A stretch of DNA of 14,491 nucleotides, from the IMG/VR virus record IMGVR_UViG_2579778989_000010; one strand, given 5' to 3'. This stretch comes from a virus (lineage: Duplodnaviria; Heunggongvirae; Uroviricota; Caudoviricetes). The notes under the pieces are model-generated. The model was not told where the DNA came from and did not search any database. It worked only from the letters and a program-made list of their open reading frames with translations. The position numbers and the translations under genes were made by a program. Every line of letters begins with the position of its first letter. Within the stretch, counting starts at the first letter, position 1. Below, one piece after another: positions 1-14,491 of this stretch.

Positions 1-738
1 TCATTCACTCTCTTTCAAACCAGTTTTAACTGTTTGTGGTTTTGGGTAAGGCTGGACTTTGAATAGCTTTGTGTTAAGGCGTTTTCTGGCTCTCTTGTCC
101 AGAAACCGGATGTAACGAAACTGACGGAATTTATGAACACTGGCTCTGTCGATATTAGCCCGCAGATGTTCACCTCGCTGTCCTCCTCGTTTGATTGCAT
201 TCTTGCAAATCTCGTGATACCACTCGCCATCAAGTTCATAGAATGTTGTTTCATGACTGCCTACATAATCAAAATTGCTTGCCTGGTACACGACACCAAG
301 ACAGCCACAACGCTCATCTGCAAACGACTGAACCCACTGCACCTGCGGATAAAGTTGTCTGATTAGTTTGAGCGCGTAACTGATTGCCCTTGATTCGGAG
401 TTTCTCGGCATACAGTCATGCAGCCATAACCGGTTAAGCTCCATATATTCGCGGTTCTGCGTGCCAGTTACGACGCGTGCACCATTGTTTGGATTAAGGG
501 CATAACCCCATTGCATTACGCCAACCAGCTCCCGTTCTGAAAATATGCCCAGATGAAGGTAGGAATTATTTACGAAACGATGGCTGTAATGTTTATTGAC
601 GACGACCAGCCGGGCCAGCCAGCAACTTATTGTCTCAACCCGTAACTCACGGGAGCCATAACCGACGATATTGTCGTTATAGTGAATAAGTTCAGGCGTG
701 CTGATGATACGGGATGTAACTTGCTTTCTGTTCCCCAC
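1..738 (-). CDS. mom: Mom-like DNA modification protein; start uncertain (GTG at 738-736 is one candidate, ORF frame is open up to 933)
   Basis: Long ORF in the other frame overlapping the 3' end of a clear com homologue, as in Mu com-mom; the ~230-245 aa portion downstream of the com stop fits Mom size. Identification is by context rather than recognised Mom motifs. Confidence 0.55.
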
Positions 739-892
739 GACAGGATTTCCTTGTGTATGTGGGGTGCTCTGTGGCGCTCTGAGATGTGATTTGATTGAGG
801 GTTTTACAGCGCGGACATTTAACTTCCAGATAACTGAAGCTGGCTCGTGCCAGTAGCTTGTTACAATGTCGGCACCGTATGTTTCGATACAT
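692..892 (-). CDS. com: Com zinc-finger translational activator of mom
   Basis: Translation [35 protein letters not shown] has the CxxC...CxxC finger and close similarity to Mu Com (IRCKNCNKLL...EIRCPRCK); GGAGG Shine-Dalgarno about 8-10 nt upstream of the ATG at 892; the ORF track's longer form from 937 lacks an RBS. Confidence 0.75.
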
Positions 893-937
893 GGCCGCAT
901 AACCTCCTGCTTTGTTGTTGATATCTTTATCACTCAA

Positions 938-1030
938 TCGATCGACAAAAACGATCGATTTGATTTATTTAATTGATACAACAAATAACACGAAATGTCA
1001 TTAGCGAAAATTTATGAGTTTGATCACTAA
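938..1030. promoter_or_regulatory. AT-rich region upstream of com with three GATC (Dam) sites, two inside a repeated ATCGATCG palindrome; candidate mom/com regulatory region
   Basis: GATC at 940-943, 953-956 and 1022-1025; in Mu, Dam methylation of GATC sites upstream of mom controls repressor binding. No confident -35/-10 pair found. Confidence 0.3.
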
Positions 1031-1148
1031 TTTTAAACGGTGCTGTAACGCATAAGTGCTGAATGATTGTACATTTGAATACCGCAAAGCAAACAAATCA
1101 ACTAATTTATAGAAGTCAATTGGTTAATTGCCAGCGTAAGAGGCTGCT

Positions 1149-1442
1149 ATGGACAATCATGTAACGACGAGAAATCGAAAAATGATTGAAAATGCGGAAA
1201 TCTATAATGATTATTTTTCCGATTATTCAGATGCCTGCAAATACAGTTCGAGTGCGGGAGAGTTCATATGCTTCAACTTTTTTATTAAATCTTATGTTTT
1301 TCCTCCACTGCAAGAAGATGGAGGTGTGCCACCTCCTGAAATCACTTTGCACCGTATAGCCTCCGTCTCAATGATGGAGCAACAGGCTAATGAGCTGTAT
1401 AGCATTCTGGGAACGATTCTACAAAAGCGTGAATCGGACTAA
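1149..1442 (+). CDS. hypothetical protein (97 aa), AT-rich, divergent from com
   Basis: ATG preceded by AAGAGG Shine-Dalgarno about 6 nt upstream; followed by two hairpins; no recognisable domain. Confidence 0.5.
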   Translation: MDNHVTTRNRKMIENAEIYNDYFSDYSDACKYSSSAGEFICFNFFIKSYVFPPLQEDGGVPPPEITLHRIASVSMMEQQANELYSILGTILQKRESD

Positions 1443-1523
1443 TGATACCGGTTCATTTGCCTGCCCGGATGGGGAAGCAGGATTGACTGCTCCATAAGCA
1501 GCTATATTTCTGAATACGAAATA

Positions 1524-1552
1524 CTATCCAGCGATTACATATGGCTGGATAG
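1524..1552. repeat. perfect 9-bp inverted repeat CTATCCAGC-(11 nt)-GCTGGATAG
   Basis: Read directly from sequence; lies between convergent genes; could be an RNA hairpin or a protein-binding palindrome. Confidence 0.5.
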
Positions 1553-1577
1553 CGGCAAAGATGTTTTCATTAGTGTC

Positions 1578-1610
1578 AAACCGGCAGAGGACACCACCGG
1601 TTTGTATTGT
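1578..1610 (+). terminator. hairpin AAACCGG-(12 nt)-CCGGTTT followed by GTATTGT; weak candidate terminator between convergent genes
   Basis: 7-bp stem with a partly T-rich 3' flank on the plus strand; lies 3' of both 1149..1442(+) and 1610..1864(-). Confidence 0.3.
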
Positions 1611-1864
1611 TACATCATGGTACTGTCAGTTCCGGGCTGAGCCGGGTCTGGTTGCTCTGGCTGCGCGTCGGTTTTCGGCTCATTATCAGCATCACTGGCC
1701 GCAACTGCTGGCCCAATAAGTTTTGCCAGCACTTCATCAACGTAAGTGTCGATTTGTGCCTCAAAATCCTTGCGGACCTGCGCTTTCAGCAACTTATTTA
1801 CTTCACCGGAATACAGTGCCTGTTTTACCAGGTCTTCAGTGACGGTGCCTTTAATTTCTGGCAT
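1610..1864 (-). CDS. hypothetical small acidic protein (84 aa)
   Basis: ATG preceded by strong AAGGAGG Shine-Dalgarno; C-terminal half is Asp/Glu/Pro/Gln-rich; no recognisable domain. Confidence 0.55.
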   Translation of the reverse strand: MPEIKGTVTEDLVKQALYSGEVNKLLKAQVRKDFEAQIDTYVDEVLAKLIGPAVAASDADNEPKTDAQPEQPDPAQPGTDSTMM

Positions 1865-1899
1865 GTATATCCTCCTTATGCGGGAATAAAGCCCTGCAA

Positions 1900-2082
1900 T
1901 CAGGGCTGGGTCGGGTCTTTTGGGAGCGGAGTTACCTGCGCTGTTTTACTGAGTTTTTCAGCTGCTGCGTCCTCAATTTTGCGGCGAACATAATTTCTGA
2001 TGGCCTTATAACCACCACTCACCAGATATAACGCACATACTGCCGTGCAGAAATACAATAAAATAAGCTGTAAAAATGTCAT
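1900..2082 (-). CDS. small membrane protein (60 aa): one N-terminal hydrophobic helix and a charged C-terminal tail
   Basis: ATG at 2082 preceded by GGGAGG Shine-Dalgarno about 5 nt upstream (the ORF track's start at 2094 has no RBS); MTFLQLILLYFCTAVCALYLVSGGY is a predicted transmembrane segment. Confidence 0.45.
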   Translation of the reverse strand: MTFLQLILLYFCTAVCALYLVSGGYKAIRNYVRRKIEDAAAEKLSKTAQVTPLPKDPTQP

Positions 2083-2178
2083 TATCCCTCCCAATTATTG
2101 ACATGGTGTTGACACCGGTAATATCTGTTAGGTAAAAAGGTGCACTGCATTTTTTGCTTTGGATATAACGATCTTTTT

Positions 2179-2220
2179 GCCGCCGGTTTCTTGTTTTCCC
2201 TTACCGGCGGCATTTTTTTA
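2179..2220 (+). terminator. intrinsic terminator, plus-strand specific: GCCGCCGGT-(15 nt)-ACCGGCGGC followed by ATTTTTTTA
   Basis: 9-bp GC-rich stem plus a 7-T run on the plus strand; the minus-strand RNA has A's 3' of the stem, so it should not terminate the esterase transcript. Confidence 0.5.
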
Positions 2221-2226
2221 TCCTGC

Positions 2227-4281
2227 TTACGCGTTATTCACTTCCACCACGATACTGTCAATCAGTACCGGGTAAGTCGCATTTTTAGTGATATCGGTCA
2301 CGCGCAACTTGTCTGCCGTAAACGTGCCGACCGGAGACTGCGACAGCATGAATGGTGTCCCGTCCTTACCATCAATGACCGGCGTCACCTCAATACTGTT
2401 GTTACCGGCAAAACGGAAGCCCAGCGTATGCCATTCGTTATTAAATGCGCCGAATGACCCCAGCTTCGTGTTCTGCGCCGTGTTTCCTTTGTGATACATC
2501 ACGTTAAGGTCTGTGGCATCGCTCTGTACGTAGAACGATGCCAGCAGGTTATGACCGGCATTTCCTTCCAGAGTAACCCCTTGCGGCAGGGCAGAAACCG
2601 GCCAGTACAGCGCCAGTGCGTACTGATTAGCCGTAAGCGCGCCATCGAGTTTAAAACGACAACTGACAAGACCACCTTTACCCAGCAGGTCCGCACCATT
2701 ACCAGCATCATGCTCAAGGTACCAGGGGGCTCTTCCTGTTTCCTTGGTCAGTTTCATTGCCTTACCCCCGCTGGCTCCGGCATCATCCACGATTTGAGCC
2801 TTGCCACCTCCGGCAGCCCAACCCTGTGGTGTCAACCGTCCTTCAGACTCAGATGCCCGGTAAGCAAATAGCGTACTCATCGTCGTGGTGTCTGCGGGTG
2901 GCGTGGACGGTTTTGATGGTGTATCAGGTGACGGCTTCTCATCCGGTGGTGTCACGGTCTGCCCGCGCATCAGTTCAGCCGTGCGCCCTGCATGGAGCAT
3001 AATAGCTGAGGCCAGACGGTCTGAAATGACGCCCCTGCGTGCCCATGAGCTGAAATGGCTGTCACGCTGTGTCGAAACAAAACTGCCCTGGGTTCGGGAT
3101 GCTGCACCGTAATACCCGACAGCCACAATATCCGGGTCTTCCGCCGGAGCATTCGTTGGCGTGCTCTGTCCATTCTCATCCGTCAGGAACGGTACAAAGA
3201 AAATTTTCTGTGCTTCCTTGCCTTTGTAGCCACCGTATACTGCCTCATATTTATCGGTGCCAGCGTTTTTCCAGTAATACGTGGTATCACCGCAAATCCA
3301 CGGCACCGTGGTGGCATTTCCACTCACGCACTGCGCAGCAAGCGGAGCCAGGTCAGTTCTGAACTGCTGAACCATGGCCGTGAATAAACTATTATGCTGC
3401 TGGCTTCCTGAGGCAAGGTCTGCCTCTCCCTGCATCCAGACCACAGCCAGAAGTTTGTTTTTCGGGTTTTTCGCCAGCGCGACTTTGGTGCGGCTTACCA
3501 GGTCCTGATACAGAGGTTTACCGGCCCCCCAGCGTGAAGAATCAGCGGAAGCACCGCTGGCCTCACTGAATGAGCCGTCGGCTCCAGTGGTGAATGCTGA
3601 CCCGCCACGACAACAGGGCACCAGAAGTATCCCGGCATTCTGTGGGATATAGGGAAGCAGTTTTTTGGCAATATGCAACCCCTGACCGACAGTCCCGTAC
3701 TGGCCTTTTGCCAGATCAGCTTTCGGGTGGTTTATCCCGCTCATATCCTGAACATCATGCAGGCAGTGGTCTGCCGGAATGATGTCGTTGTATGTACACG
3801 ACGTACCGTTGGGCGTTACCGTACTGCGGCGTGCCAGTTGCTTAATGCGTGGGTCCGGGCGGTCAAACGAATCCGGTAACGGCAGCCCCTCGCCGTAGGC
3901 CATGCCATTTGACTGACCCGCGAGAATGACAACAAAGTAATATTCCGGCTCTGAACTGCTGCCATTCGTGCTACCGGAAGGCCCGGCGTTATCCGGTGCA
4001 TTCCAGTCGGAGGGCGTGAGCGTTCCGGCCACGTCAGATGTGATTGGAATGATGCCAGTCACGCCTGAACTGGTGATTTCTGCACTGGGATTACCGGATA
4101 CCGGCATTACCCATAATGGCTCTTTCGTGCTGAAGCGGATCACGCAGTCTGCGAAGGTGATCCCCCCTTTATTACCCGAAGGGCGGAAAGGGCTTTCAAT
4201 AAATGCCACCGTGCCACCGGCAACCTTGACTGAAAACTCTCCGGGCATGGCGGAGAGCATTTTCCACTTGGAGTCTGACAT
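2227..4281 (-). CDS. SASA/SGNH-family esterase (sialate O-acetylesterase-like; architecture resembles prophage NanS-p), 684 aa
   Basis: SGNH/SASA-like motifs in order: ILAGQSNGMAYG (block I GQSN), VWMQGEAD, RDSHFSSW (candidate DxxH block); N-terminal ~100 aa and C-terminal ~250 aa extra domains; Shine-Dalgarno is weak. Confidence 0.65.
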   Translation of the reverse strand: MSDSKWKMLSAMPGEFSVKVAGGTVAFIESPFRPSGNKGGITFADCVIRFSTKEPLWVMPVSGNPSAEITSSGVTGIIPITSDVAGTLTPSDWNAPDNAGPSGSTNGSSSEPEYYFVVILAGQSNGMAYGEGLPLPDSFDRPDPRIKQLARRSTVTPNGTSCTYNDIIPADHCLHDVQDMSGINHPKADLAKGQYGTVGQGLHIAKKLLPYIPQNAGILLVPCCRGGSAFTTGADGSFSEASGASADSSRWGAGKPLYQDLVSRTKVALAKNPKNKLLAVVWMQGEADLASGSQQHNSLFTAMVQQFRTDLAPLAAQCVSGNATTVPWICGDTTYYWKNAGTDKYEAVYGGYKGKEAQKIFFVPFLTDENGQSTPTNAPAEDPDIVAVGYYGAASRTQGSFVSTQRDSHFSSWARRGVISDRLASAIMLHAGRTAELMRGQTVTPPDEKPSPDTPSKPSTPPADTTTMSTLFAYRASESEGRLTPQGWAAGGGKAQIVDDAGASGGKAMKLTKETGRAPWYLEHDAGNGADLLGKGGLVSCRFKLDGALTANQYALALYWPVSALPQGVTLEGNAGHNLLASFYVQSDATDLNVMYHKGNTAQNTKLGSFGAFNNEWHTLGFRFAGNNSIEVTPVIDGKDGTPFMLSQSPVGTFTADKLRVTDITKNATYPVLIDSIVVEVNNA

Positions 4282-4366
4282 CGTCTTTTCTGCCTGTTTC
4301 TGAATTAAACAGAGTCAGAATAGCGACCGCTGAAAAATATGTGTTTTGCGGAAATTCAAAAAAGCG

Positions 4367-4939
4367 TCACGGTACTTTTGGTGACGGAGCTGGTGAGGCA
4401 GGAAAATAACGATAAAGGGTGGAAAGGCCAATATCAAATATCAGTGCGATTTGTTTACGGGACTCGCCATTAGCCAGCAAACGGGCGATTTGCTCCCGCT
4501 CTTTCTCTGTCAGTTTCTGAGGTCTGCCGCCATGACGCCCCTGAGCACGGGCAGCAGCAAGACCCGCGCGTGTACGTTCAATAATGAGTTCCCGCTCCAT
4601 TTCCGCCAGCGCGCCCATTATATGGAAAAAGAAACGTCCCATGGGAGTGGATGTATCAATATTGTCCGTAATGCTGCGGAAGTTAACGCCGCGTTGCCGG
4701 AGTTCTTCTGTTAAAAGGACAAGGTGCTGCATACTGCGTCCAAGGCGATCCAGTTTCCAGACCAGCAGGGTATCCCCTGGCCGGAGTCGCTTTAATGCGC
4801 GTTTAAGTCCGGGACGCTCCCTTGTCTTACCGCTTATTCTGTCTTCGAAAAACAGCTCACATCCTGCACATTCCAGCGCATTTCTTTGTAGCGCCGTATT
4901 CTGGTCATTTGTTGACACCCTGATATACCCAATCAGCAT
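4367..4939 (-). CDS. gin: Gin/Pin-family serine DNA invertase
   Basis: MLIGYIRVSTNDQNTALQRNAL...VWKLDRLGRSM...MGRFFFHIMGALAEMERELIIERT is near-identical in pattern to Mu Gin / e14 Pin (catalytic Ser in RVST); AAGGAA Shine-Dalgarno and a TATAAT-like hexamer upstream. Confidence 0.9.
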   Translation of the reverse strand: MLIGYIRVSTNDQNTALQRNALECAGCELFFEDRISGKTRERPGLKRALKRLRPGDTLLVWKLDRLGRSMQHLVLLTEELRQRGVNFRSITDNIDTSTPMGRFFFHIMGALAEMERELIIERTRAGLAAARAQGRHGGRPQKLTEKEREQIARLLANGESRKQIALIFDIGLSTLYRYFPASPAPSPKVP

Positions 4940-5004
4940 ACGATTTCCTTATTATAAAAAGCCGGAATTGTCGCATGAGGAATAAAACAGAGTTAATCCT
5001 GGCT

Positions 5005-5030
5005 TTCCTGAAAACCTCGGTTTACGGGAA
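5005..5030. other. gix-like recombination (crossover) site for Gin
   Basis: TTCCTGAAAACCTCGGTTTACGGGAA is an imperfect palindrome whose AAAACCTCGGTTTAC core matches the Mu gix/hix core as I recall it; sits between gin and the S' segment as in Mu. Confidence 0.6.
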
Positions 5031-5378
5031 ACGGTAAACAGGGCGGCGAATGCTCTGCCATCGGACGGCACCGCCGTTGCCGCGAATAGACTCGCCACCC
5101 CAAGAAATATTAATGGGGTTCCCTTTGACGGGACGCAGGACATAAACATCACTTCTGGTATAACACAGCAGGATGCGGATTCCCGATATATCCAGGATAT
5201 CAGGCTGGGAGCAGAGAACAGGCAGGTAATGTACGGTGGGGCATATTACTCTGCGTACGGTAATGTTATGGCAGGCCTGCAGATTGACAGTAAAGTTGAT
5301 GCTTCAAACGATTTTATAGCATTCAGACCCCTGCAAAAATTAGTCGGAGGTACATGGATTACGGTATCTCAGTTATAA
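5031..5378 (+). CDS. tail-fibre variable C-terminal segment (S'-like), start-less; expressible only when fused to a constant S part by inversion
   Basis: Frame is open from just upstream of gix to TAA at 5376-5378 with no upstream start; translation ...AANALPSDGTAVAANRLATPRNINGVPFDGTQDINITSG... resembles tail-fibre repeat regions; followed by a tail-fibre assembly gene. Confidence 0.5.
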   Translation, partial: TVNRAANALPSDGTAVAANRLATPRNINGVPFDGTQDINITSGITQQDADSRYIQDIRLGAENRQVMYGGAYYSAYGNVMAGLQIDSKVDASNDFIAFRPLQKLVGGTWITVSQL

Positions 5379-5429
5379 ATAGTCAGTAAATAATATATTT
5401 TAAAACAGATTTATTTCCAGGAGGATTTT

Positions 5430-5951
5430 ATGGAACTAAAAAATATAACCCGTTATTATCCTGAAAATATGCCATATGGTAATAATGTTCAGTATTTCCA
5501 GAGTGAAGATGGTAAGGATTTCTACGAATCCCTGCCATTATTCACCAAAAAATATAAACTTTGCATAACACCTGACAGCGGCGTTATCTGCTCAATATCA
5601 CAGGACGCCTCGGCGCTGTATCCTGCGGGGTTTTCTGTGGTTGAGGTCGATGAACTCCCTGAAGGCACGGATATTTCAGGAAACTGGAAGTTTGATAATG
5701 GCATAATCTCCCGTATTCCGGTTAACTACGCAAGAAAACTGGAAGCAATGCGCCAGTCATATCTTAATCAGGCATATGAAAAAATTAATGACTGGAGAAC
5801 GGAGCTACAACTGGGCACCATCAGCGATGAAGACAGAGCAGCACTTACCCAATGGATGGCATACATCAGTCAGGTGAAGAAAATGGAACTACCCGCCATT
5901 AAAACAGAAGCTGAATTTAACGCCATTAAATGGCCTGAGCAGCCACAGTAA
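5430..5951 (+). CDS. tail fibre assembly protein (U'/Tfa family)
   Basis: AGGAGG Shine-Dalgarno; 173 aa; LGTISDEDRAALTQWMAYISQVKKM... ending WPEQPQ resembles Mu U/U' and other tail fibre assembly proteins. Confidence 0.8.
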   Translation: MELKNITRYYPENMPYGNNVQYFQSEDGKDFYESLPLFTKKYKLCITPDSGVICSISQDASALYPAGFSVVEVDELPEGTDISGNWKFDNGIISRIPVNYARKLEAMRQSYLNQAYEKINDWRTELQLGTISDEDRAALTQWMAYISQVKKMELPAIKTEAEFNAIKWPEQPQ

Positions 5952-5955
5952 TAAA

Positions 5956-5973
5956 GAAGGCCGGAAGGCCTTC
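5956..5973. terminator. short hairpin GAAGGCC-GGAA-GGCCTTC immediately 3' of U'
   Basis: 7-bp stem read from sequence; no strong T-tract, so terminator function is uncertain. Confidence 0.3.
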
Positions 5974-5982
5974 TGAATATCA

Positions 5983-6231
5983 TTATATACTTGCAGCCGT
6001 CACCCATGCTTCATTTAACAGATACTGCAACGGCCGGTAATACACGCCGCCGACGTTATCTGCCGTATTCTTACCGACATCCTGTACTTTAATTCCGGTA
6101 AGAACATTGCCGCCCCCCAGATTCAGATCCCAGCTTTCCCATGTTCCGGGCATATGTGCGGTCACCGACCCCAGTCTTATGGCGGTTAATGGCGTTTTCC
6201 CCGCCATCAGCGATAAAGCCCTGCCGGTGCA
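5983..6231 (-). pseudogene. start-less open frame of unknown origin, possibly a C-terminal remnant of a late (tail-fibre-related) gene left at the deletion junction
   Basis: Frame open for 82 codons from a stop at 6232-6234 with no upstream partner; overlaps the gemA-like ORF's 3' end in another frame; Gly/Asn/Val-rich like fibre C-termini. Weak. Confidence 0.25.
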
Positions 6232-6481
6232 TCACTTTCCAGATGGCGCGAATTTTGGCGGTCACCGTCCCCGGTTTTAAGGCCCGGTTAACCGGCTTCT
6301 GACGCACTTTAAAACCGCGTTTTTTGAAAACATCCAGCACGCGGGATAACTCATCCGGTGACATATCCCGGCAACTGGGTTTGCCGGTGGCTGCCAGTAG
6401 TACGGATGTGTAGGTCTCATGGTCAAGCTGTAGATCGCGTTTTGCGACATGTATTAAGGTAATCAGGGAAGCGCGATTCAT
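6089..6481 (-). CDS. gemA: GemA/gp16-like early protein (DUF1018-like); C-terminus probably altered by the deletion junction
   Basis: MNRASLITLIHVAKRDLQLD...GKPSCRDMS...KIRAIWKVMHRQGFIADGGENAIN matches the Mu-like gp16 pattern as I recall it; the last ~25 residues lose the expected pattern; GGAGA Shine-Dalgarno. Confidence 0.5.
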   Translation of the reverse strand: MNRASLITLIHVAKRDLQLDHETYTSVLLAATGKPSCRDMSPDELSRVLDVFKKRGFKVRQKPVNRALKPGTVTAKIRAIWKVMHRQGFIADGGENAINRHKTGVGDRTYARNMGKLGSESGGRQCSYRN

Positions 6482-6545
6482 TATCGTGTCTCCGTAACAA
6501 CAGGCGGCATGGCAACGCCGCCCGGATAAAACTAAAGGTATCGAT

Positions 6546-6956
6546 ATGAAAATAGATTACGATGAAGTATTAAGTATTCTCACAACTTTTCAGGATGCTG
6601 AAACACCTTTCCTTACACTACAGGATCTGGGCATGGCTGAGGCAGAAGGAGAGGAAAAGGATAAAAAAGTTTTTCATCTTATGCTTCTCGCTGATAATGG
6701 CTCAATTGTTAATGGTGATATGCAGTCAGAAACACCCAAATATATTGGTTTCTTTTTCCATTCTCTGGGCGTTGGTTTCAGAAACACGCCCATTATGCTT
6801 ACCCAGCAGGGGCATGATTTAGCTAACGCCCTGAGAAAAAAACCAATCCTTGAAAGAATCAAAAAGGAGTTTACAGACGCACCATTTGATCTAATTAAAG
6901 AAGTTACCAAATCAATGTTAACCAGGTTCGTCAAAGAACGTATTGGGATTGACTGA
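6546..6956 (+). CDS. hypothetical protein (136 aa), AT-rich, opposite strand to the early operon
   Basis: ATG with AAAGG Shine-Dalgarno; visibly more AT-rich than flanking genes; divergent from the gemA-like gene; 3' end overlaps the convergent gene 6918..7226 by 39 bp. Confidence 0.5.
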   Translation: MKIDYDEVLSILTTFQDAETPFLTLQDLGMAEAEGEEKDKKVFHLMLLADNGSIVNGDMQSETPKYIGFFFHSLGVGFRNTPIMLTQQGHDLANALRKKPILERIKKEFTDAPFDLIKEVTKSMLTRFVKERIGID

Positions 6957-7226
6957 ACAACTTAATTCAGCCAGTAATCGCAGGGCGGCGACAGCCGCCT
7001 GCTTGTCACTTCTTTTAGCTATTTCCGCAAGAGTATGCACAATCCATAACGGACTTAACGCCACGGCTGAATCCAGAATCATGTCATCCATAATAATTTC
7101 TGGCATATCCCGCTTGTCACATTCTTTATCCATAAAAGAAACGAATTTCTCTGCATCTTCCGGTTTCATGCCTCCGGCGATAAGGATTTTGCGATATTCA
7201 TAAGACGATCTTAATTCAATACTCAT
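6918..7226 (-). CDS. hypothetical protein (102 aa)
   Basis: ATG with AGGTGA Shine-Dalgarno 5 nt upstream, immediately after the TAA of the preceding gene. Confidence 0.5.
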   Translation of the reverse strand: MSIELRSSYEYRKILIAGGMKPEDAEKFVSFMDKECDKRDMPEIIMDDMILDSAVALSPLWIVHTLAEIAKRSDKQAAVAALRLLAELSCSVNPNTFFDEPG

Positions 7227-7241
7227 TATTCACCTGCCTGC

Positions 7242-7592
7242 TTAATCTGTTTCCAGTGCTTTGCTACGGGCTATAGCCTCACATTCAAAAAATACCGACT
7301 CCGGCACGCGCTCTTTTAATTCACGAACAAGGAAATCATTAACGCGTTCATGACGTCTTATATTTCTTTCCTTTTCCTCCTGGCGCAATACAGCAAGGCG
7401 GTATTCAACAGCCCGGCGTTGTTTCTGAAAGACAGCCAGTGCTTTTCTGGCAGCATTACGCCATGCATCATCGCCACATGGTGCGTATTCAAGCTGAAAT
7501 TTAATCTCTTCAATAGTTTCTTTGATTTTTGCCAGCAAGCTAAGACAGTCGCTTATTGTCTCCAGCTTTTCATTATCAATATAACTTCTCAC
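7242..7592 (-). CDS. hypothetical early protein (116 aa from GTG; charged, probably helical)
   Basis: GTG at 7592-7590 overlaps the upstream TGA (GTGA coupling); the ORF track's longer form from 7634 overlaps the upstream gene by 46 bp. Confidence 0.45.
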   Translation of the reverse strand: MRSYIDNEKLETISDCLSLLAKIKETIEEIKFQLEYAPCGDDAWRNAARKALAVFQKQRRAVEYRLAVLRQEEKERNIRRHERVNDFLVRELKERVPESVFFECEAIARSKALETD

Positions 7593-7918
7593 GCATTCAC
7601 CTCCCGTAATTCCGGTAAAGCCGAAATATGACACCAGTGCGTCACCTGTCCGTCTTCATCTTCAAGGCAGGCTCCGGTTTCTTCATCAACAAAAAAGCCT
7701 TCATACCCCATATGGCCGATGCGCAGCTCCTGACGGTGACCATACTGAACAATCAGCACGACAGCCTCCATATCAGGTGGGAAAGCATCATTCAGTGAAT
7801 GCCAGGGATAACCGCGTAAATCCCCGAAATAAACACCGGTCAGCGTTCCGCCACAGAGCGGCATTCCGGCGGCACACACAAGAGGTTCATCTGATTCAAC
7901 AAATAAGGTCGTTATCAT
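7589..7918 (-). CDS. hypothetical early protein (109 aa)
   Basis: ATG overlaps the upstream stop as ATGA; same strand and tight packing as the rest of the operon. Confidence 0.5.
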   Translation of the reverse strand: MITTLFVESDEPLVCAAGMPLCGGTLTGVYFGDLRGYPWHSLNDAFPPDMEAVVLIVQYGHRQELRIGHMGYEGFFVDEETGACLEDEDGQVTHWCHISALPELREVNA

Positions 7919-8466
7919 GGCGTTAACTCCCGTAATACAGCGTCCTCGGCAGTCCGGCGACGGTAATAAACTGCGTGAGCAGAATGTTCAGATATTCCAA
8001 ACTTTTCGCCAATTTCCCGGAATGACAGACGGCGTGGGTAATCGGAATCACGCAGCGCACGTATAAGACGTACATCATCATCAGATATGCGCGTGCCGGG
8101 GCGTAACTCTCCGCACTTTGTTAATCCAGCACCAATCATTCCTGCCCGACATCTGACAGAATCTTTATTACGTCCGAGATATTCTCCCATTTGCTGGCAG
8201 GTCATTGTTCTGGCATTTTTTCGAATAAACTTATCTTCATCAGGTGTAAATCTTGGGTGTTTATATTTCAGTAACTCCGGGTATGAACTGCGCAATACAC
8301 CAGTCCGGTTATATACAGCCCAGACAGTTCTTTTTATTCTGGCAGCAATATCCTTAACCGGGGTGGATGAATAAAGCGCAATCAGTAGCGCATCTTCTTC
8401 AGGTGTCCACGCGCGGACATGAGCGGGTGTACGACCTTTTCGCCCCATGTGTTGTAAAATCATCAT
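7915..8466 (-). CDS. putative DNA-binding protein with two Myb/SANT-like repeats and a C-terminal helix-turn-helix-like segment (183 aa)
   Basis: Repeats WTPEEDALLIALY...VWAVYNR and RFTPDEDKFIRKN...; C-terminal RLSFREIGEKFGISEHSAHAVYYRR; GGGGGTGA Shine-Dalgarno. Confidence 0.5.
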   Translation of the reverse strand: MMILQHMGRKGRTPAHVRAWTPEEDALLIALYSSTPVKDIAARIKRTVWAVYNRTGVLRSSYPELLKYKHPRFTPDEDKFIRKNARTMTCQQMGEYLGRNKDSVRCRAGMIGAGLTKCGELRPGTRISDDDVRLIRALRDSDYPRRLSFREIGEKFGISEHSAHAVYYRRRTAEDAVLRELTP

Positions 8467-8469
8467 ACA

Positions 8470-8985
8470 TCACCCCCTGACTCGCTTTTCGGCAGCATAA
8501 AACTCATCAGACAGAATTTCGGTCATTTTCCGTTTTGCGGAATCATCTTCGCACTGAAGATAAATCACATTGTCAACGCAGAACCAGTTCACGGGACCAT
8601 ACAATATTGCTGAGAAGTCAATACCCAGCCAGAACAACAGGGCATCGGTTCTGGCATACGTGACGGGCGAATATTCACGCCACAGACTGTTCAGTTCATC
8701 AGAGGCAACACGCAGGGCTTTAGGGATACGTGATGTGCGCGGTGTGCAGCTCCAGCCATTCGACGCAGTCGGTTTTCGCCATAAGTCGCGATGAAAAGGA
8801 TATTTGTCCTCCGTAAAACGCAGTCCCTTAAAACAAAAACCACTGATACTGAATTCAAATACCGACCGGCACGCAACATTCAGCACGGCCTCAAGGCGTT
8901 TCGCCTCATCTTTTACCGTCTGGCAGTCCTGCTGGTATTTTTGCCACGCAGCCAGCGCGGAAGGGTTTGATGTTTTAAAGAACAT
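8470..8985 (-). CDS. hypothetical early protein (171 aa)
   Basis: ATG overlaps the upstream TAA (TAATG); GGAGGTG Shine-Dalgarno. Confidence 0.5.
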   Translation of the reverse strand: MFFKTSNPSALAAWQKYQQDCQTVKDEAKRLEAVLNVACRSVFEFSISGFCFKGLRFTEDKYPFHRDLWRKPTASNGWSCTPRTSRIPKALRVASDELNSLWREYSPVTYARTDALLFWLGIDFSAILYGPVNWFCVDNVIYLQCEDDSAKRKMTEILSDEFYAAEKRVRG

Positions 8986-9518
8986 TACGCCACCTCCGCA
9001 GATATCCCGGCAGGCGCTGCTGTCCGGTCAACAATCAGGTAGCGCAGAACACGCGCGGTGATATTCCAGCCGCTTAAACCGCAGATGATGACACCCAGGC
9101 GAATGTCGATATACGCCATCACAAACTGGGGCACGCCTTCTTTCATGGCCTGCTCATCAACTTCAGCCACCACATAAACGGTTTCACAGGTCAGAACGCC
9201 CTGAGCAAATTCCCACGCCATCGACGGAATATCATGCCCCTCAATCCATGGCAGGGATTTTCTGAAGCTGCACCACTGAACATCATCAGCCGCAGATTCC
9301 TGTCTGCATTTGCGACGAATCGGCTGCACCGGGCGGGGACGCGGAATATCATAAAAACCGTTACATTCCGTCAGCACCCCGGCATCAACCGCATCACGCA
9401 GAAAATAAACCATGGAGGATGGCGGCATATTCATTTTTTCAGCCAGTACGCCGCAGGTCAGACGCCCGTAAATACTCAGCCAGTTTTTAACCCCTTCAAG
9501 CACTTTTGCATCAATCAT
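8985..9518 (-). CDS. hypothetical early protein (177 aa)
   Basis: ATG with GGAGGA Shine-Dalgarno; co-oriented and tightly packed. Confidence 0.5.
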   Translation of the reverse strand: MIDAKVLEGVKNWLSIYGRLTCGVLAEKMNMPPSSMVYFLRDAVDAGVLTECNGFYDIPRPRPVQPIRRKCRQESAADDVQWCSFRKSLPWIEGHDIPSMAWEFAQGVLTCETVYVVAEVDEQAMKEGVPQFVMAYIDIRLGVIICGLSGWNITARVLRYLIVDRTAAPAGISAEVA

Positions 9519-9521
9519 GAA

Positions 9522-10064
9522 TTATTCCTCCGTCAGCGCCACATATTCAGAATGTTTAATTTCCTGGCATTCTTCAGGAATACATCCGTTTATTTCCCTG
9601 CCATAAGCGCCCACTTTAAACACCACGCACAGGGCATCACGGGAGAACGAAGGGGTCCACCAGGAGTCCGTGTTAAACATGGAGGGGATTCTCATTACCC
9701 CCAGCTTTTCACAGAGCCAGACAAGGAAATCAGGACGCTTTCTTAACTCGCGTTCAGCGGCTTCAATCATTGCGGCAATCGCCGGTCCTTCAGGGCATGA
9801 CTCATCAGGTCTGGCTATAAAGCACTGTCCGCCACCGATAAAAGCCACATCATCGCGCTTACGCCAGCCCGCAGGCAGAGCACCGGCAAAATAAAACTCA
9901 CTGATTCTGTCCATGGCGAACGGCTTTAAGCGCAATCCGGCAGCGCCTGTATTTTTCAGTAATGTCCGAAGAATACTGTTGCGTAGCGGTAAAACAGCCT
10001 GTTGATATTTGGTGAAATATTTATTTGTCTGCACACGGTCTAATTTGAAATAAAAATATGCCAT
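9522..10064 (-). CDS. hypothetical early protein (180 aa)
   Basis: ATG with AAGGAA Shine-Dalgarno; preceded by an AT-rich ~100 bp spacer after gam. Confidence 0.5.
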   Translation of the reverse strand: MAYFYFKLDRVQTNKYFTKYQQAVLPLRNSILRTLLKNTGAAGLRLKPFAMDRISEFYFAGALPAGWRKRDDVAFIGGGQCFIARPDESCPEGPAIAAMIEAAERELRKRPDFLVWLCEKLGVMRIPSMFNTDSWWTPSFSRDALCVVFKVGAYGREINGCIPEECQEIKHSEYVALTEE

Positions 10065-10161
10065 ATTTCCGATTCCTTATTTTCAGCTTTCAGGCGCAAG
10101 CAGTCCCCTGACGCGAGCGCCATAATTAAAATGAAGTGATATTTAAATAATTAATGCGGTG

Positions 10162-10692
10162 TTATTTATTCAGTCCGGCATCCTGTTCAAAAGGCTCGAC
10201 ATAAAAACTTTCAGCGCCTTTATTCACCTTTATACCGGCAATGCCTTTCACCGCATCCGGCTCCGCCAGGACGGCTTCCTTGTTCACTTCCTCTTTCGTG
10301 CGGATGAATCGCTCAAGCCCCATACGGCGCAGCGTGTCAATCACACCTTCCACATCACGGCTGACGCTGCATGATGGCGTTCCCAGCCGCCATGACACCG
10401 TTCCGGTGGTCAGATTGGCAGTTTTGGTTTTGCCGCCGTTCGTCAGCTCATCACGGTTGGTTTTACACCAGTCCTGAATCCCTTTAAAAAGCACTTTGAT
10501 TTGCTTTTTAAGATTTTCAATCTGCGGCGTATAACGGGCGGTGATTTCTGCCACTTCATCATTCATCGCCGTTTCCAGGCGCAGCGCCTCTCGCTGAATA
10601 TCGCCCAGGGTGCGGATATCGCGGCTGACTTCTTCGCGGGTCTGCGGTGCGGCCTCGGCTACAGCCTTTAATTTTGTAACGCGTTTTGCCAT
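10162..10692 (-). CDS. gam: Gam host-nuclease inhibitor (Mu Gam / Ku-like DNA end-binding protein)
   Basis: RLETAMNDEVAEIT and NRDELTNGGKTKTANLTTGTVSWR...LERFIRTKEEVNKEA closely match my recollection of Mu Gam; 176 aa; AAGGA Shine-Dalgarno. Confidence 0.8.
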   Translation of the reverse strand: MAKRVTKLKAVAEAAPQTREEVSRDIRTLGDIQREALRLETAMNDEVAEITARYTPQIENLKKQIKVLFKGIQDWCKTNRDELTNGGKTKTANLTTGTVSWRLGTPSCSVSRDVEGVIDTLRRMGLERFIRTKEEVNKEAVLAEPDAVKGIAGIKVNKGAESFYVEPFEQDAGLNK

Positions 10693-10703
10693 TTTGTTTT
10701 TCC

Positions 10704-10997
10704 TTATTGCAATGTATCTGGTGCGTTCTGCAAGGAGCGGCGCTCAATGCTGCTTTTCACCCCCAGAGCCTGCATGGAACCCTGAAGTTCATCTGTCAGA
10801 AACTGAATAATTGTGGGGCTGTGATATTTAAGAATTTGCGCATAAACATCACATGGGCCTGTCGGTCTGTTCTCCGTATCACGTTCGATTTTTACAGTGG
10901 CAGTAACCCCCTCCGTGATTTCCTGACTATCATTACCGGCTGGCTTTACTTCATGCATTACGTGGTTAAATTCAAAAATAACGCGTACTTTGCTCAT
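10704..10997 (-). CDS. hypothetical early protein (97 aa from the internal ATG); N-terminal motif shared with the upstream gene
   Basis: ATG at 10997 has AGGGG Shine-Dalgarno; begins MSKVRVIFEFNHVMHEVK, paralleling MSKVVHIIFEYKEHVIHK of the neighbour. Confidence 0.45.
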   Translation of the reverse strand: MSKVRVIFEFNHVMHEVKPAGNDSQEITEGVTATVKIERDTENRPTGPCDVYAQILKYHSPTIIQFLTDELQGSMQALGVKSSIERRSLQNAPDTLQ

Positions 10998-11001
10998 GGA
11001 A

Positions 11002-11274
11002 TTACCCCTGCTGATTAAATTCATTACCGTTAATAACCCCGGAAGCCATGCCCCTGTCTTTCATGAATGCACTGGCTTTCATTGCCACAAGCTCTGCGAA
11101 GTTTCTGCTTTCCGCGAGCATAACCACCCCAAAAATCATGGCGGGGCCATCACCTTTCTGCTTTATCCCCGTTGAACGTATGTCCAGACTTACCCCCATG
11201 CGCACTGTTCCATCAGCGTTTTTATGGATAACGTGCTCCTTATATTCGAAAATAATGTGTACGACTTTACTCAT
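11002..11274 (-). CDS. hypothetical early protein (90 aa); N-terminal motif shared with the downstream gene
   Basis: ATG overlaps the upstream stop (ATGA); similar first ~18 residues to the downstream gene. Confidence 0.45.
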   Translation of the reverse strand: MSKVVHIIFEYKEHVIHKNADGTVRMGVSLDIRSTGIKQKGDGPAMIFGVVMLAESRNFAELVAMKASAFMKDRGMASGVINGNEFNQQG

Positions 11275-11552
11275 CCTCTGGTCCTCGTTCTGTTTGGATA
11301 ACTGACCCGGCGTCTGACCTCACGGCAGAACCGAATCATGGCATTAAAGGCTTCTTCCTCCGTCACCGCTTCCGGTATCCCCGGAACCAGTAACTGCTCC
11401 TGTTCATCACGTCCATGACGCGCCATAACCTCAATCACATGCCGTACCGTGGCAGGCTTTCCGGCAACTATCGGCAATGCACCTTCCGGCAGGACGTAAC
11501 CAAACTCAATAAGACCACTCGACCACGCCCATGCAATGAGATTTTTTTTCAC
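11271..11552 (-). CDS. hypothetical early protein (93 aa), GTG start
   Basis: GTG at 11552 preceded by GGGAGGTG Shine-Dalgarno; adjacent to the upstream stop. Confidence 0.45.
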   Translation of the reverse strand: MKKNLIAWAWSSGLIEFGYVLPEGALPIVAGKPATVRHVIEVMARHGRDEQEQLLVPGIPEAVTEEEAFNAMIRFCREVRRRVSYPNRTRTRG

Positions 11553-11553
11553 C

Positions 11554-11820
11554 TCACACCTCCCAGTAAACCGTGCAGCCGCTGATGCGGGTGGCCTTCA
11601 CACGGCGGCGCAGGCCGTTGGTCTGTATGGTGATTTCAATTTCACCGGTTCCCTGCACGTTGCCTACCGGCGGCGTGGTTTTCAGTGCAAAACGTTGCGG
11701 ATAGCGCTTACTGCGTTCCAGTACCGCACCGGCAAGTTCGGTCAGACGGCGCGCGCTGTTCAGGGAGTCGAATAAATTCATTTTGTTACCGCAGGATTGC
11801 ATATTCATATAACACCTCAT
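11554..11820 (-). CDS. hypothetical early protein (84-88 aa; start at 11820 or at the internal ATG 11808, which has an AGGTG Shine-Dalgarno)
   Basis: ORF directly follows the kil-like gene; start choice ambiguous. Confidence 0.4.
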   Translation of the reverse strand: MRCYMNMQSCGNKMNLFDSLNSARRLTELAGAVLERSKRYPQRFALKTTPPVGNVQGTGEIEITIQTNGLRRRVKATRISGCTVYWEV

Positions 11821-12042
11821 TTAGCTGACTTGTTTCGCACCAACAGAACGGCATATTCCGCTGTAAACTTCTGTCGCACCTTCGCGATCAAGTCCGGCAG
11901 ATATCACCATTCGTGTGCGGTCATTAAATTCAAAAAGTAAATCGCCACATTCTTTATTTTCGGCCAGTGAAATCACCTTCACGTTATCGAAATTAACCAG
12001 GTAAAAGCGTCCGTAAATATCAGGAATATTAAATACCGCCAT
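11821..12042 (-). CDS. kil: Kil-like small early protein (73 aa)
   Basis: Position immediately downstream of B with overlap of the B stop, as for Mu kil; size ~74 aa; ATG 12042 has AGGTG Shine-Dalgarno. Identity by position and size only. Confidence 0.4.
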   Translation of the reverse strand: MAVFNIPDIYGRFYLVNFDNVKVISLAENKECGDLLFEFNDRTRMVISAGLDREGATEVYSGICRSVGAKQVS

Positions 12043-12044
12043 AA

Positions 12045-12977
12045 TCACACCTGTGAGAGTAATTCAGGGTTGGTATAAACCTCTTTAAAGGCCGCATTAA
12101 TATGTTTTTCTGTCAGCGCCGCGCCTTCACCGCTGGCGGTGAGCCACGCCTGGTTAAGCGTATGTGTCAGAACGCGTAACGCTCCCGGCTTTTCAGCGAT
12201 AGCCTGCATGACGGCCAGCTCGGCCTCACCACTGATCCCCCACGCCATGGCAATGGCCAGCACATCCGCCTTTTTGGCCTTGCGAAGTTGTTTTGTACGG
12301 GCAAGACGGCTGAACAGGCGCGATAAATCATCAAAGGCGCGGCGTCCACCTTTAAACAATCCGCGCGGGTTACCAATAAGCACCATCCCGATCCCCGTGG
12401 CGTCCTGAATTGCCCGGAGTTGCTCCAGACCGTCAATACCAAGATGATCCGCCTCATCCACAATCACCAGTCCACGCGTTCCCATCAGGCGACGGCGGAT
12501 GGCGCGGGATAATGCCCCTTTGTTCGCGCGGGTGTAATCAATCCCCAGCGCATCGGCCAGCTCCAGCAGACACTCCGTGACGCTGGAGTGCGCGGGTGAC
12601 AGGGTGATCATCCAGGTGTTTGGTTGCTCCTGGCAGTAATTACGGGCAGTGGCCGTTTTACCCACACCCGGTACGCCCACAATAACGTTAATACAGCCCA
12701 TCAGGCGAACCGCCTGAAACAGTGCGCGCAGCTCCTGGACTGTCTGAGTTTCCACAAACTGCGGCGGTTCCGGCAGTGCGCTTTGTTTATTCCAGTTCTC
12801 ATACCAGGAGCGCAGGGAAGCAGCCACAGCAGCGTTATCGCCTTTATATTTTCCCTTACGGAAAGCCGATAATGTGCCGTCGGAAATTCCCGCCTCTCTG
12901 GCGATGGCATACTGCGTCAGTACGCCGCCATCAATAAGTTCATCAATGGTCTTGATTACATCGTTAATATCGGTCAT
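12045..12977 (-). CDS. B: MuB-like AAA+ ATPase (transposition target-DNA activator) with N-terminal HTH
   Basis: Walker A GVPGVGKT, VIVDEADHLG (Walker B), KPGALRVL, and N-terminal GISDGTLSAFRKGKYKGDN all parallel Mu B; ~310 aa versus 312 in Mu; GAGGTGA Shine-Dalgarno before ATG 12977. Confidence 0.85.
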   Translation of the reverse strand: MTDINDVIKTIDELIDGGVLTQYAIAREAGISDGTLSAFRKGKYKGDNAAVAASLRSWYENWNKQSALPEPPQFVETQTVQELRALFQAVRLMGCINVIVGVPGVGKTATARNYCQEQPNTWMITLSPAHSSVTECLLELADALGIDYTRANKGALSRAIRRRLMGTRGLVIVDEADHLGIDGLEQLRAIQDATGIGMVLIGNPRGLFKGGRRAFDDLSRLFSRLARTKQLRKAKKADVLAIAMAWGISGEAELAVMQAIAEKPGALRVLTHTLNQAWLTASGEGAALTEKHINAAFKEVYTNPELLSQV

Positions 12978-13059
12978 ATTATTCACCTCGCTTGAGACAG
13001 CATTCTCCGAGACTGAAACCTCAAATAACCTGAGTCACCCCTCGGGTTATTTTTTTATT

Positions 13060-14491
13060 TCAGGCCAGCGGATCACTTTCTTTTAATTTCGCTTCGAGCA
13101 ACTGCAATCCCCGCTGGAAATTACGCTCGTATTCTTCATCAGGTTCATCGTCAGCGACCGGTTGCTGAACGGTCACCGTATTACCCACAGGGCGGTATAT
13201 GTTTTCCAGCCAGGGCTCCTGCGGCTTGTGCTCCAGCACGTTGACAACCTCATCCTCGGCATCACGGATTTTTTCCTCTGCGCGTTTACGCATGCCTTTA
13301 AGGCGCTGCTGCTGTTTGTAGTATTCCGCGCTGACAGGGAAGGCTTCGCGTTTATTGCCGTCCCATATCCGAGTAATACAGAAACGGTTTGCCATGATGG
13401 CGAATACCGTGCTGTATGGCACCGGCTACGGCGAAAACATTTTCAGCCAGGTCAAGGCTCCAGCCCACCACAAAGCGCGTGCCACCGTCGATAACAAAGG
13501 TCACTTCCGGTGCGAATGGCCGCCCGTGAACCGGGTGCGCGCATTTCAGCTTCATGCCGTGACCGTCACCAATCCAGACATAATTCACCGGCATTCTGGA
13601 CCAGTCGCGGCGCGTGAATCCCTCAAGCTGACGGTATTCACTGCCAGTTACCCGGCCTTTTTGTTTCACCACTTCCGGCAGTTTCTTCATTGCGCGGCGA
13701 ATGGTGTCATAAGAGGGCATGATATCGAGCATATAAGGCTCATCAGCGTGCCGGTGCTGCCATTCAGCAACAAAATCCTCGTAAGCCTCGGTCATTGGTC
13801 GGCCGTTTGACTGGCGATACTGCGCCAGAAATTCGGGCAGCCAGTTAATATCTTCGGCTTTTATTTCCTGGCGTTTACCCGGTGCCAGTAAAAGCAGGCG
13901 TTCAGCGGCGTTCTGTGCCTTGTTAAAGGCCGCAATCCAGCGTTTCAGCGTGATTTCACTCAACGCGCGGCTGTTTCCCTTTTTGGCGTTCGCCGTCTCA
14001 ACCATTGCCACAATGCGCTCGTCCAGTTGTGATCGTGCCAGGCTGTTAACGAGGAACCGGATAGCCTTAGCGCAACTAAAGCCGGGTTGTTGCGCGATTT
14101 TCAGCACCTCGCTGACGATCGCTATTCGTGCCTCTGCCACTTTACGTTGGTTTTCAGTCAGGGCATTGAGGCGTTCGACCATCAGTTGGGGTGATCCGCG
14201 ATATGCCTCCACCGCATCAACCACGGCAGGTGAGCGTCTGGCCTTTGTCACCACCGGAGCCGGTGATTCATCGGCTTTTTGCGTCATCAGTTGCAGGGCG
14301 TAGCGTTCACGTAATGCCTGCTGCGTCACTTCAGGTAAACAGTCGATGCTGTATTCAGTTGCTTTAGAGCCTGAGCGACGACGGGAACAACAGCTTTTCC
14401 CTTGTACGTAACGTTGTAATGCCTGGCGAATACCTTTTGTTGTAGCAGGCATTCCGGGCGCGCCAATCAGTTCTTTTGCAATGACATACAT
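13060..14491 (-). pseudogene. A: MuA-like DDE transposase, 5' end at or beyond the window edge, disrupted by an internal deletion and frame change near 13340-13430
   Basis: N-terminal 379-aa frame aligns with MuA from the N-terminal DNA-binding region through the first two catalytic Asp regions (NYVWIGDGHG..., FLYYSDMGRQ) and then hits a stop at 13352; a second frame (13060..13422) encodes the MuA C-terminus (EYYKQQQRLK..., PVGNT..., DDEPDEEYE). About 200 residues including the catalytic Glu are absent. Confidence 0.7.

Follow-up and report, generated by a model that had tools for sequence, protein, structure and literature searches.

The two palindromic GATC sites upstream of com are probably the conserved core of a Dam-sensitive OxyR-type operator (approximately positions 941-977) that overlaps a weak core promoter. 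The stretch of DNA analysed here (14,491 nucleotides, hereafter the window) is a Mu-like prophage of the Sp18 type and is defective: this deletion remnant has lost the sole C-family activator of its lineage, and nothing in its sequence shows that the com-mom promoter needs this activator. The control region upstream of com has a well-studied homologue and belongs to a known prophage lineage; its layout is a shorter variant.

The window begins at the stop codon of mom (1-738, minus strand), which encodes a DNA adenine modification enzyme of 245 aa (Pfam Mom PF25680, E 7.8e-78). The protein shares 78% identity with Mu Mom (tblastn), and an identical protein is annotated in RefSeq as WP_000528246.1. 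The gene com (692-892, minus strand) overlaps the start of mom and encodes a zinc-ribbon translational activator of mom of 66 aa (Pfam Zn_ribbon_Com PF10122, E 7.5e-13); in identical E. coli loci its product is annotated as a Com family protein. A Shine-Dalgarno sequence AGGAGG (903-908, minus strand) precedes the com ATG (892) by 10 nt and an out-of-frame ATG (900) by 2 nt; it is unchanged in 12 of 13 distinct relatives. Over its first 2.4 kb the window shows 100% identity to loci of many E. coli genomes, in which a Mu-like prophage terminates with mom and com. In these identical loci, com-mom forms the right end of the prophage and the chromosomal junction lies about 130 bp past the mom stop codon.

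Positions 1-6188 match the right end of the intact relative NZ_OZ547136.1 (blastn; L001 20001-26188), and positions 6182-9526 match the early region from inside gemA onward (blastn; L004 9765-13108). Since the right-end and early-region matches adjoin in the window, about 23 kb have been deleted. The junction (6182-6188) is a 7-bp microhomology, GCGGTTA, and a truncated gemA (gp16; Pfam GemA profile positions 1-87 of 119) is fused to the 3' end of the tail-fibre gene (6089-6481, minus strand). Lost with this segment were the C-family activator and the genes for lysis, head and tail. The gene order of the intact relative is gp16 (gemA), a Mor-family protein (140 aa) and lysozyme, and the sole Mor/C-family gene, which in intact relatives directly follows gemA, lies inside the deleted segment. 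Its product shares 40% identity with Mu C (E 2e-37) versus 28% with Mor and hence is the C ortholog (WP_000852372.1). Searches of the window with Pfam and tblastn returned no Mor/C-family homologue, in agreement with the initial annotation, which had seen no C activator in the window. A tblastn match of Mu Mor at 11940-11827 (E = 0.004) was treated as noise; the ORF has no Pfam match, and its PHROG is one of unknown function. A second internal deletion, of about 0.66 kb, affects the transposase A gene. The same remnant, recognized by the exact fusion ORF, occurs in at least 56 blocks of public assemblies and sits between ppnP and aroM in all six places examined in detail. Across all 14,491 bases, the window and one NCBI assembly share 99.986% identity.

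As com and mom are encoded on the minus strand, the GATC sites at 940-943, 953-956 and 1022-1025 are located upstream of com. The first two lie in the palindromes ATCGATCG (937-944) and CGATCGAT (952-959), 13 bp apart from start to start, and form part of a perfect 9-bp inverted repeat, AATCGATCG-N7-CGATCGATT (936-960), with the spacer ACAAAAA, which holds both conserved Dam sites. The hexamer CGATCG occurs three times in the window, and two of these copies are the ones 13 bp apart. The initial annotation had described three GATCs within about 90 bp upstream of com, two of them in a repeated palindrome around an A-tract, and this description is accurate. The third site (1022-1025) is outside the conserved module, within the spacer of a promoter-like TTTAAA-N17-TAAATT (1037-1009, minus strand), and is confined to window-type upstream haplotypes. 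Homology with the common Sp18-type relatives stops at about position 1001, so the third site does not belong to the conserved element. It was also considered as the counterpart of Mu GATC1 and rejected, since Mu GATC1 aligns with AATT and position 1022 is past the break in Sp18 homology. The third GATC is incidental, and chance is the best reading for it.

GATC is depleted in the window (22 occurrences versus 49.9 expected), as has also been reported for E. coli mobile elements (PMC4659465, PMC6602927). At the window's own density, three or more GATCs in the 256-bp intergenic region have a P of approximately 0.007. With the 22 sites placed uniformly, a 13-bp pair anywhere has P = 0.34 and an 82-bp triple anywhere P = 0.12. 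By count the cluster is only mildly unusual, and because this significance is weak under uniform placement, the case for a function rests on structure and conservation. The uniform-placement values agree with a chance clustering of GATCs in an AT-rich intergenic region, devoid of function. Against this reading, the pair and its spacing are kept upstream of com in many diverged lineages and are absent from com-less Mom loci. In a set of 80 viral contigs with Mom relatives, which has many near-identical members but spans about ten diverged promoter types, 43 of the 46 com-bearing loci have GATC-N9-GATC ahead of com, and the 34 loci that lack com never have it. In 18 Mom-encoding loci from different species, eight such pairs were found in 104.5 kb; six are situated at most 400 bp upstream of the start of the mom match and a seventh at 447 bp. 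Several Mom loci retain the full Mu spacing GATC-N14-GATC-N9-GATC. By its structure and its conservation in diverged relatives the pair stands above chance, and the comparative data effectively refute the chance reading for it, whose probability we regard as next to negligible.

A structural role was also weighed, in which the palindrome acts as a plus-strand terminator for transcription that arrives antisense through mom and com, or as a hairpin in the 5'-UTR of the com mRNA. The terminator scan lists 936-960 on the plus strand with nine pairs, a 7-nt loop and the tail TGATTTATTT, and the hairpin is present in the RNA fold. Its stem, however, contains G-C in only four of the nine pairs, and the fold of the minus-strand RNA 880-970 is ordinary (z = -1.09), with 29 of 200 shuffled sequences folding as well. 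A gathering search with the Rfam families gave no match in the whole window. The relatives are at odds with a hairpin too: in Mu, L010, L011, L177 (with GATCT) and L182-L184 the flanks and the spacer vary and the stem is broken, whereas GATC-N9-GATC is retained. Broken stem complementarity combined with the preservation of both GATCs and of their spacing points to methylation sites within a protein-binding site rather than to a hairpin. An intrinsic terminator was rejected on the grounds of the few G-C pairs, the ordinary fold and the non-conserved stem, and a structural element of either kind is very improbable.

Dam/OxyR control of Mu mom is a textbook case of methylation-dependent repression. 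Region I of the Mu mom promoter contains three GATCs and is bound by OxyR when these are unmethylated. The initial annotation had likened the GATC cluster to this Dam-controlled region and proposed an alignment as a check. In a MAFFT alignment on the com strand, the window sequence AATCGATCGTTTTTGTCGATCGATT falls on Mu AATCGATCGGTAATACAGATCGATT, which comprises GATC2 and GATC3, without gaps. Identity amounts to 19/25 in the core and 24/37 over the whole OxyR-type site, and the 13-bp spacing is kept in both. The likeness to Mu therefore holds for the two palindromic GATCs, homologous to Mu GATC2 (953) and GATC3 (940), and fails for the third, for which AATT stands at the position of GATC1. The operator of agn43 in E. 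coli K-12 (aacGATCaatatctattttatcGATCgtttatatcGATCgataagc) has a core, TATCGATCGTTTATATCGATCGATA, that is identical to the core of the window in 21 of 25 positions. A match to the OxyR tetramer consensus with two half-sites extends over 37 bp (941-977, minus strand) and is the positional homologue of Mu 2157-2193. Scored against the consensus ATAGnTnnnAnCTAT-N7-ATAGnTnnnAnCTAT, window 977-941 reaches 13/20 and shares the highest score among the 28,910 positions of the window, compared with 13/20 for the homologous site of Mu and 14/20 for that of agn43. The GATCs at 953 and 940 form the two ends of the proposed half-site ATCGTTTTTGTCGAT (955-941, minus strand). The upstream half-site (977-963) contains no GATC, and the match of the whole site is only 13/20. 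Binding of OxyR and its sensitivity to methylation are predicted here by similarity to two characterised operators.

The G of GATC3 and the com ATG are 51 nt apart in the window and in Sp18-type relatives versus 78 nt in Mu. The missing segment of about 27 bp carries in Mu the C site TTATgccccAATAA, a poor -35 and the T6 run. Neither a TTAT-N6-ATAA C site nor a T6 run was seen in the sequence upstream of com, and both are also absent in intact relatives. With some 27-30 bp absent between the last GATC and the -10, the operator would be positioned directly over the -35 and spacer of a weak com-mom promoter. A candidate weak -10 region (918-932, minus strand) comprises TG-a-TAAAGA (932-924) and TATCAA (923-918), and TTGTCG (948-943) is a possible -35 that overlaps GATC3. 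All of these promoter candidates near com are weak. In relatives, -10-like hexamers are found 31-42 nt before the com ATG: TAAGAT in Mu, TATACT in L182 and L183, TATAGT in L184, TATAAT in L187 and TATCAT in L170. The candidate -10 stretch is the most variable part among the E. coli haplotypes, with five variants and a 6-nt indel; the common Sp18 haplotype reads GAAAGG/CATCAA at the candidate -10s. We infer both the transcription start and the expression state of com-mom: a start near 911-917 would place the operator at approximately -60 to -24, over the -35 and the spacer, and the GATC pair at approximately -45/-32.

Upstream of the operator lies a conserved block, ATGACATTTCGTGTTATTTGTTGT (978-1001, minus strand), with a weak sigma-70-like ATGACA-N17-TATCAA (1001-973, score 5.0). 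This could be the real promoter, in which case the operator would be found at or downstream of the start, as in agn43; alternatively, the block could hold an activator site. The conservation of the block speaks for this upstream promoter, but it was downgraded because the diverged relatives L182-L184, L187 and L170 have good -10s downstream of the GATC pair.

In the proposed working of the overlapping operator, its core would have been inherited from a common ancestor with Mu. OxyR would bind when both GATCs are unmethylated or hemimethylated and occlude the promoter. Dam methylation of both GATCs would exclude OxyR, and the weak promoter could then fire. Com, encoded first on the shared transcript, would still be needed for the synthesis of Mom by allowing the translation of mom.

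In both the intact relative and Sp18, the promoters of lys, of the protease gene and of the SASA/DUF6645 gene share a late box, CTGAAATTCCGCAAA-N22/23-TAnnnT. A position weight matrix (PWM) was built from six real late boxes, whose own scores are 22-28 bits. The sole clear C-type late promoter remaining in the window, TTGAATTTCCGCAAAAC-N-TATTCT (4317-4359, minus strand), is located upstream of the SASA/DUF6645 gene (2227-4281) and scores 25.7 bits (4359-4343). On the com strand upstream of com, the PWM gave no late box: the best score was -1 bit in the window (range -1 to -3 bits) and -7 bits in Sp18. A match of 11.2 bits at 1074-1090 was set aside; it is on the opposite strand, has an internal spacing shorter by 1 nt and faces the plus-strand ORF 1182-1442. 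The C site of Mu Pmom itself deviates from those of lys, I and P, and given this atypical site the failure of a six-site PWM does not exclude weak binding of C. Read-through from the C-dependent DUF6645 late promoter into com-mom may also occur; on the minus strand between this promoter and com, the terminator scan found one terminator-like site only (1336-1320).

These results bear on the reading in which the GATC pair is the Dam/OxyR region of a strictly C-dependent com-mom operon, and mom of the remnant is silent unless another Mu-like prophage provides C in trans. In Mu, com-mom is a late, C-dependent operon (PMC4461284, PMC3378877). The uniformly weak sigma-70-like candidates near com are as expected of an activator-dependent promoter, the intact lineage possesses the C ortholog described above, and a partial box-like TCGCTAA-N22-TATCAA is present at 1007-973. 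Related elements number up to four per E. coli genome, which makes a supply of C in trans possible. Yet even intact relatives lack the Mu segment with the C site, the -35 and the T6 run, and the late-box scores before com fall far from the range of real late promoters. The Sp18 haplotype has nothing in the register of the partial box, and an operator at approximately -60 to -24 leaves no room for a C dimer at the Mu position. The silence of mom that the initial annotation expected in the absence of C is thus not supported, nor is it disproven: the rule that no transcription occurs without C fits the DUF6645 promoter well and is unproven for com-mom. As a whole, the strictly C-dependent reading is rather unlikely. 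Control by Dam or SeqA without OxyR was considered as well. Methylation might alter the binding of RNA polymerase, for which GATC3 is suitably placed, overlapping the best -35-like hexamer TTGTCG. Alternatively, SeqA might bind the hemimethylated pair after replication, as at promoters of the IS10/Tn5 type, and couple com-mom to replication. Pairs of GATCs with a spacing of about one helical turn are typical substrates of SeqA. Transposase promoters are known to be controlled by hemimethylated GATCs (PMC4659465). But the conserved sequence is longer than the GATCs themselves and agrees with the operators bound by OxyR in Mu and agn43, and a 13-bp pair within a ATAGnTnnnAnCTAT-like half-site is a documented OxyR arrangement, so that we hold control without OxyR to be distinctly improbable.

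In the regulatory regions of com-mom from many diverged prophages, the only element that stays constant is GATC-N9-GATC within an OxyR-type half-site; the activator part of the promoter varies. The operator of the Sp18-type lineage, widespread in E. coli, overlaps the core promoter and is accompanied by no recognisable C site, and hence the Mu rule of "no C, no mom" is not simply transferable. Should mom fire without C, cryptic remnants could modify host DNA, and DNA leaving the host could differ in its sensitivity to restriction; otherwise the remnant holds a toxic gene that stays silent. Either outcome would be a modest extension of known systems. A bolder and unlikely proposal is that Sp18-type mom has been rewired from a C-activated late promoter to a Dam/OxyR switch on the core promoter in the style of agn43 and gtr, with expression of Mom independent of C and possibly phase-variable. 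The late activator would then have no part in the adenine modification of cellular DNA, which may be heterogeneous in lysogens, and this would include a fixed, immobile remnant with com-mom intact and the C, lysis, head and tail genes lost. Sp18 was earlier noted to encode Mom and Com homologues (PMC3299994). Our literature search gave no publication about the mom promoter of the Sp18 type, and the E. coli methylome papers examined contained nothing on a mom locus.

Compared with Mu mom, the element occupies the same place upstream of com-mom, and its match to the OxyR consensus is at the homologous position with an equal score. For Mu, the transcription start was set at L003 2247 from a published Ptin7 fragment (-58 to +20) and an oligonucleotide (PMC3378877, PMC4461284). 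From this start, the dyad of the C site is at -43.5 and GATC1-3 are at -87, -69 and -56. Mu Pmom has the C dyad downstream of its last GATC and ahead of the -10, and a 19-bp spacer that includes the T6 run; neither the dyad nor the run was seen upstream of com in the window. The window also lacks the three-GATC OxyR-protected region of Mu: GATC1 of Mu lies 18 bp upstream of GATC2, whereas the third GATC of the window is 69 bp away from GATC2 on its upstream side, counted start to start, and the sequence there is not homologous. Position, homology to Mu and an OxyR-type site are therefore shared with the Mu region; the three GATCs and the C site with the T6 spacer are not.

The agn43 core ATCGATCGTTTATATCGATCGAT is nearly identical to ATCGATCGTTTTTGTCGATCGAT of the window, with an equal GATC-N9-GATC spacing. 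The agn43 operator is alike also in being situated on the core promoter and start region and not far upstream. It begins at the annotated 5' end of isrC (L036 218), whereas the start in the window is a predicted one. In contrast to the two GATCs and weak promoter candidates of the window, agn43 has three GATCs, and its promoter, TTGTCC-N17-TAGAAT, is strong (score 12). The resemblance is one of sequence and layout and does not extend to a common descent of the genes downstream. In P22 gtr, each OxyR dimer half-site has a GATC pair 13 bp apart, at -110/-97 and -46/-33, and binding of OxyR is abolished by Dam methylation (PMC2909390). The proposed layout of the com-mom promoter resembles the promoter-proximal OxyR site of gtr: with a start near 911, and compared by published positions, the pair of the window at approximately -45/-32 would correspond to the repressing promoter-proximal half-site. 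However, gtr has two alternative OxyR sites, one activating and one repressing, with four GATCs that lead to phase variation, and the window has one pair. Sp18 from E. coli O157:H7 Sakai belongs to the same lineage and shares the gene order, the com-mom module, the invariant palindrome and the short promoter, with a 92% match to the window over 760-1001. It differs in a different divergent gene beside com, a different 14 nt after the palindrome and the lack of the third GATC, and it is a full-length prophage with the C ortholog ECs_4961, whereas the window is a deletion remnant.

A large internal deletion of about 23 kb lies at window positions 6182-6188 (context 5983-6481), with the microhomology GCGGTTA at its junction, and fuses the 3' end of the tail-fibre gene with a gemA that is truncated. 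The C ortholog, the lysis genes and the head and tail genes were lost with it. The invertible G segment was also deprived of its distal inverted repeat, so that Gin (4367-4939) no longer has a complete substrate. The transposase A gene (13060-14491) carries the second internal deletion, about 0.66 kb long and with its junction near 13363-13371, and is broken into two ORFs of 379 and 120 amino acids. The prophage remnant is probably immobile. The early region also differs from the intact relative used for comparison: positions 9527-10046, including the ORF 9522-10064, have no homology to it and represent a module swap.

Public assemblies contain the remnant's fusion ORF, in exactly this form, in at least 56 blocks, and one NCBI assembly, GCA_013071855.1, matches the whole window (1-14491) with 99.986% identity. 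In all six places examined in public assemblies (L029-L034), the remnant is sited between ppnP and aroM. It looks like an element that has become fixed in a lineage of E. coli and has kept com-mom intact.

Sp18-type prophages have in common a late-promoter box, CTGAAATTCCGCAAA-N22/23-TAnnnT, which precedes lys, the protease gene and the SASA/DUF6645 cargo gene. Copies were located at 9019-9054 and 832-867 of L004, a locus of the intact relative, and at 10542, 18460 and 34464 of locus L035. The window retains one intact but orphaned box at 4317-4359 on the minus strand and a weaker copy at 1074-1090 on the plus strand, the latter facing an unannotated ORF (1182-1442).

Upstream of the annotated mom start, the mom frame is without a stop for 65 codons (738-933, minus strand) and reaches an ATG at 900-898 (minus strand), 2 nt past a Shine-Dalgarno sequence. 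Because this frame is open to the ATG, some gene callers yield a Mom of 299 amino acids that overlaps all of com. The corresponding extension comprises 27 codons and no ATG in Sp18 and 10 codons in Mu; as it is not conserved, the extended protein is probably an annotation artefact.

The 14 nt directly after the invariant palindrome (921-935) are hypervariable among E. coli haplotypes and overlap the candidate -10. The window and the homologous positions in L005, L006 and L166-L179 displayed the variants GAGTGATAAAGATAT, GCATGAGAAAGGCAT, TGGTGAGAAAGATAT and AGGCGAGAAAGATAT, plus one with a 6-nt CAACAA insertion. Relaxed or diversifying selection on the promoter strength of a toxic gene could account for this variability. 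Another 13/20 match to the OxyR consensus, located at 2114-2150 upstream of the DUF1378 gene and with a GATC nearby (2170-2173), is probably due to chance. The window as a whole has far fewer GATC sites than expected (22 observed versus 49.9 expected; at least 22 in 200 of 200 shuffles), consistent with the under-representation published for mobile elements of E. coli (PMC4659465, PMC6602927).

Among the 80 viral Mom loci, 34 (L203-L236, viral contigs) lack both com and the GATC pair. Within their upstream regions of about 200 nt, these loci share a G+C-rich conserved leader directly before mom, with the pattern …gggcgccccggaaagttgccgctctccggggc…cacgagcacacc…tattggagt…, which may be an RNA element in place of the Com-dependent control.
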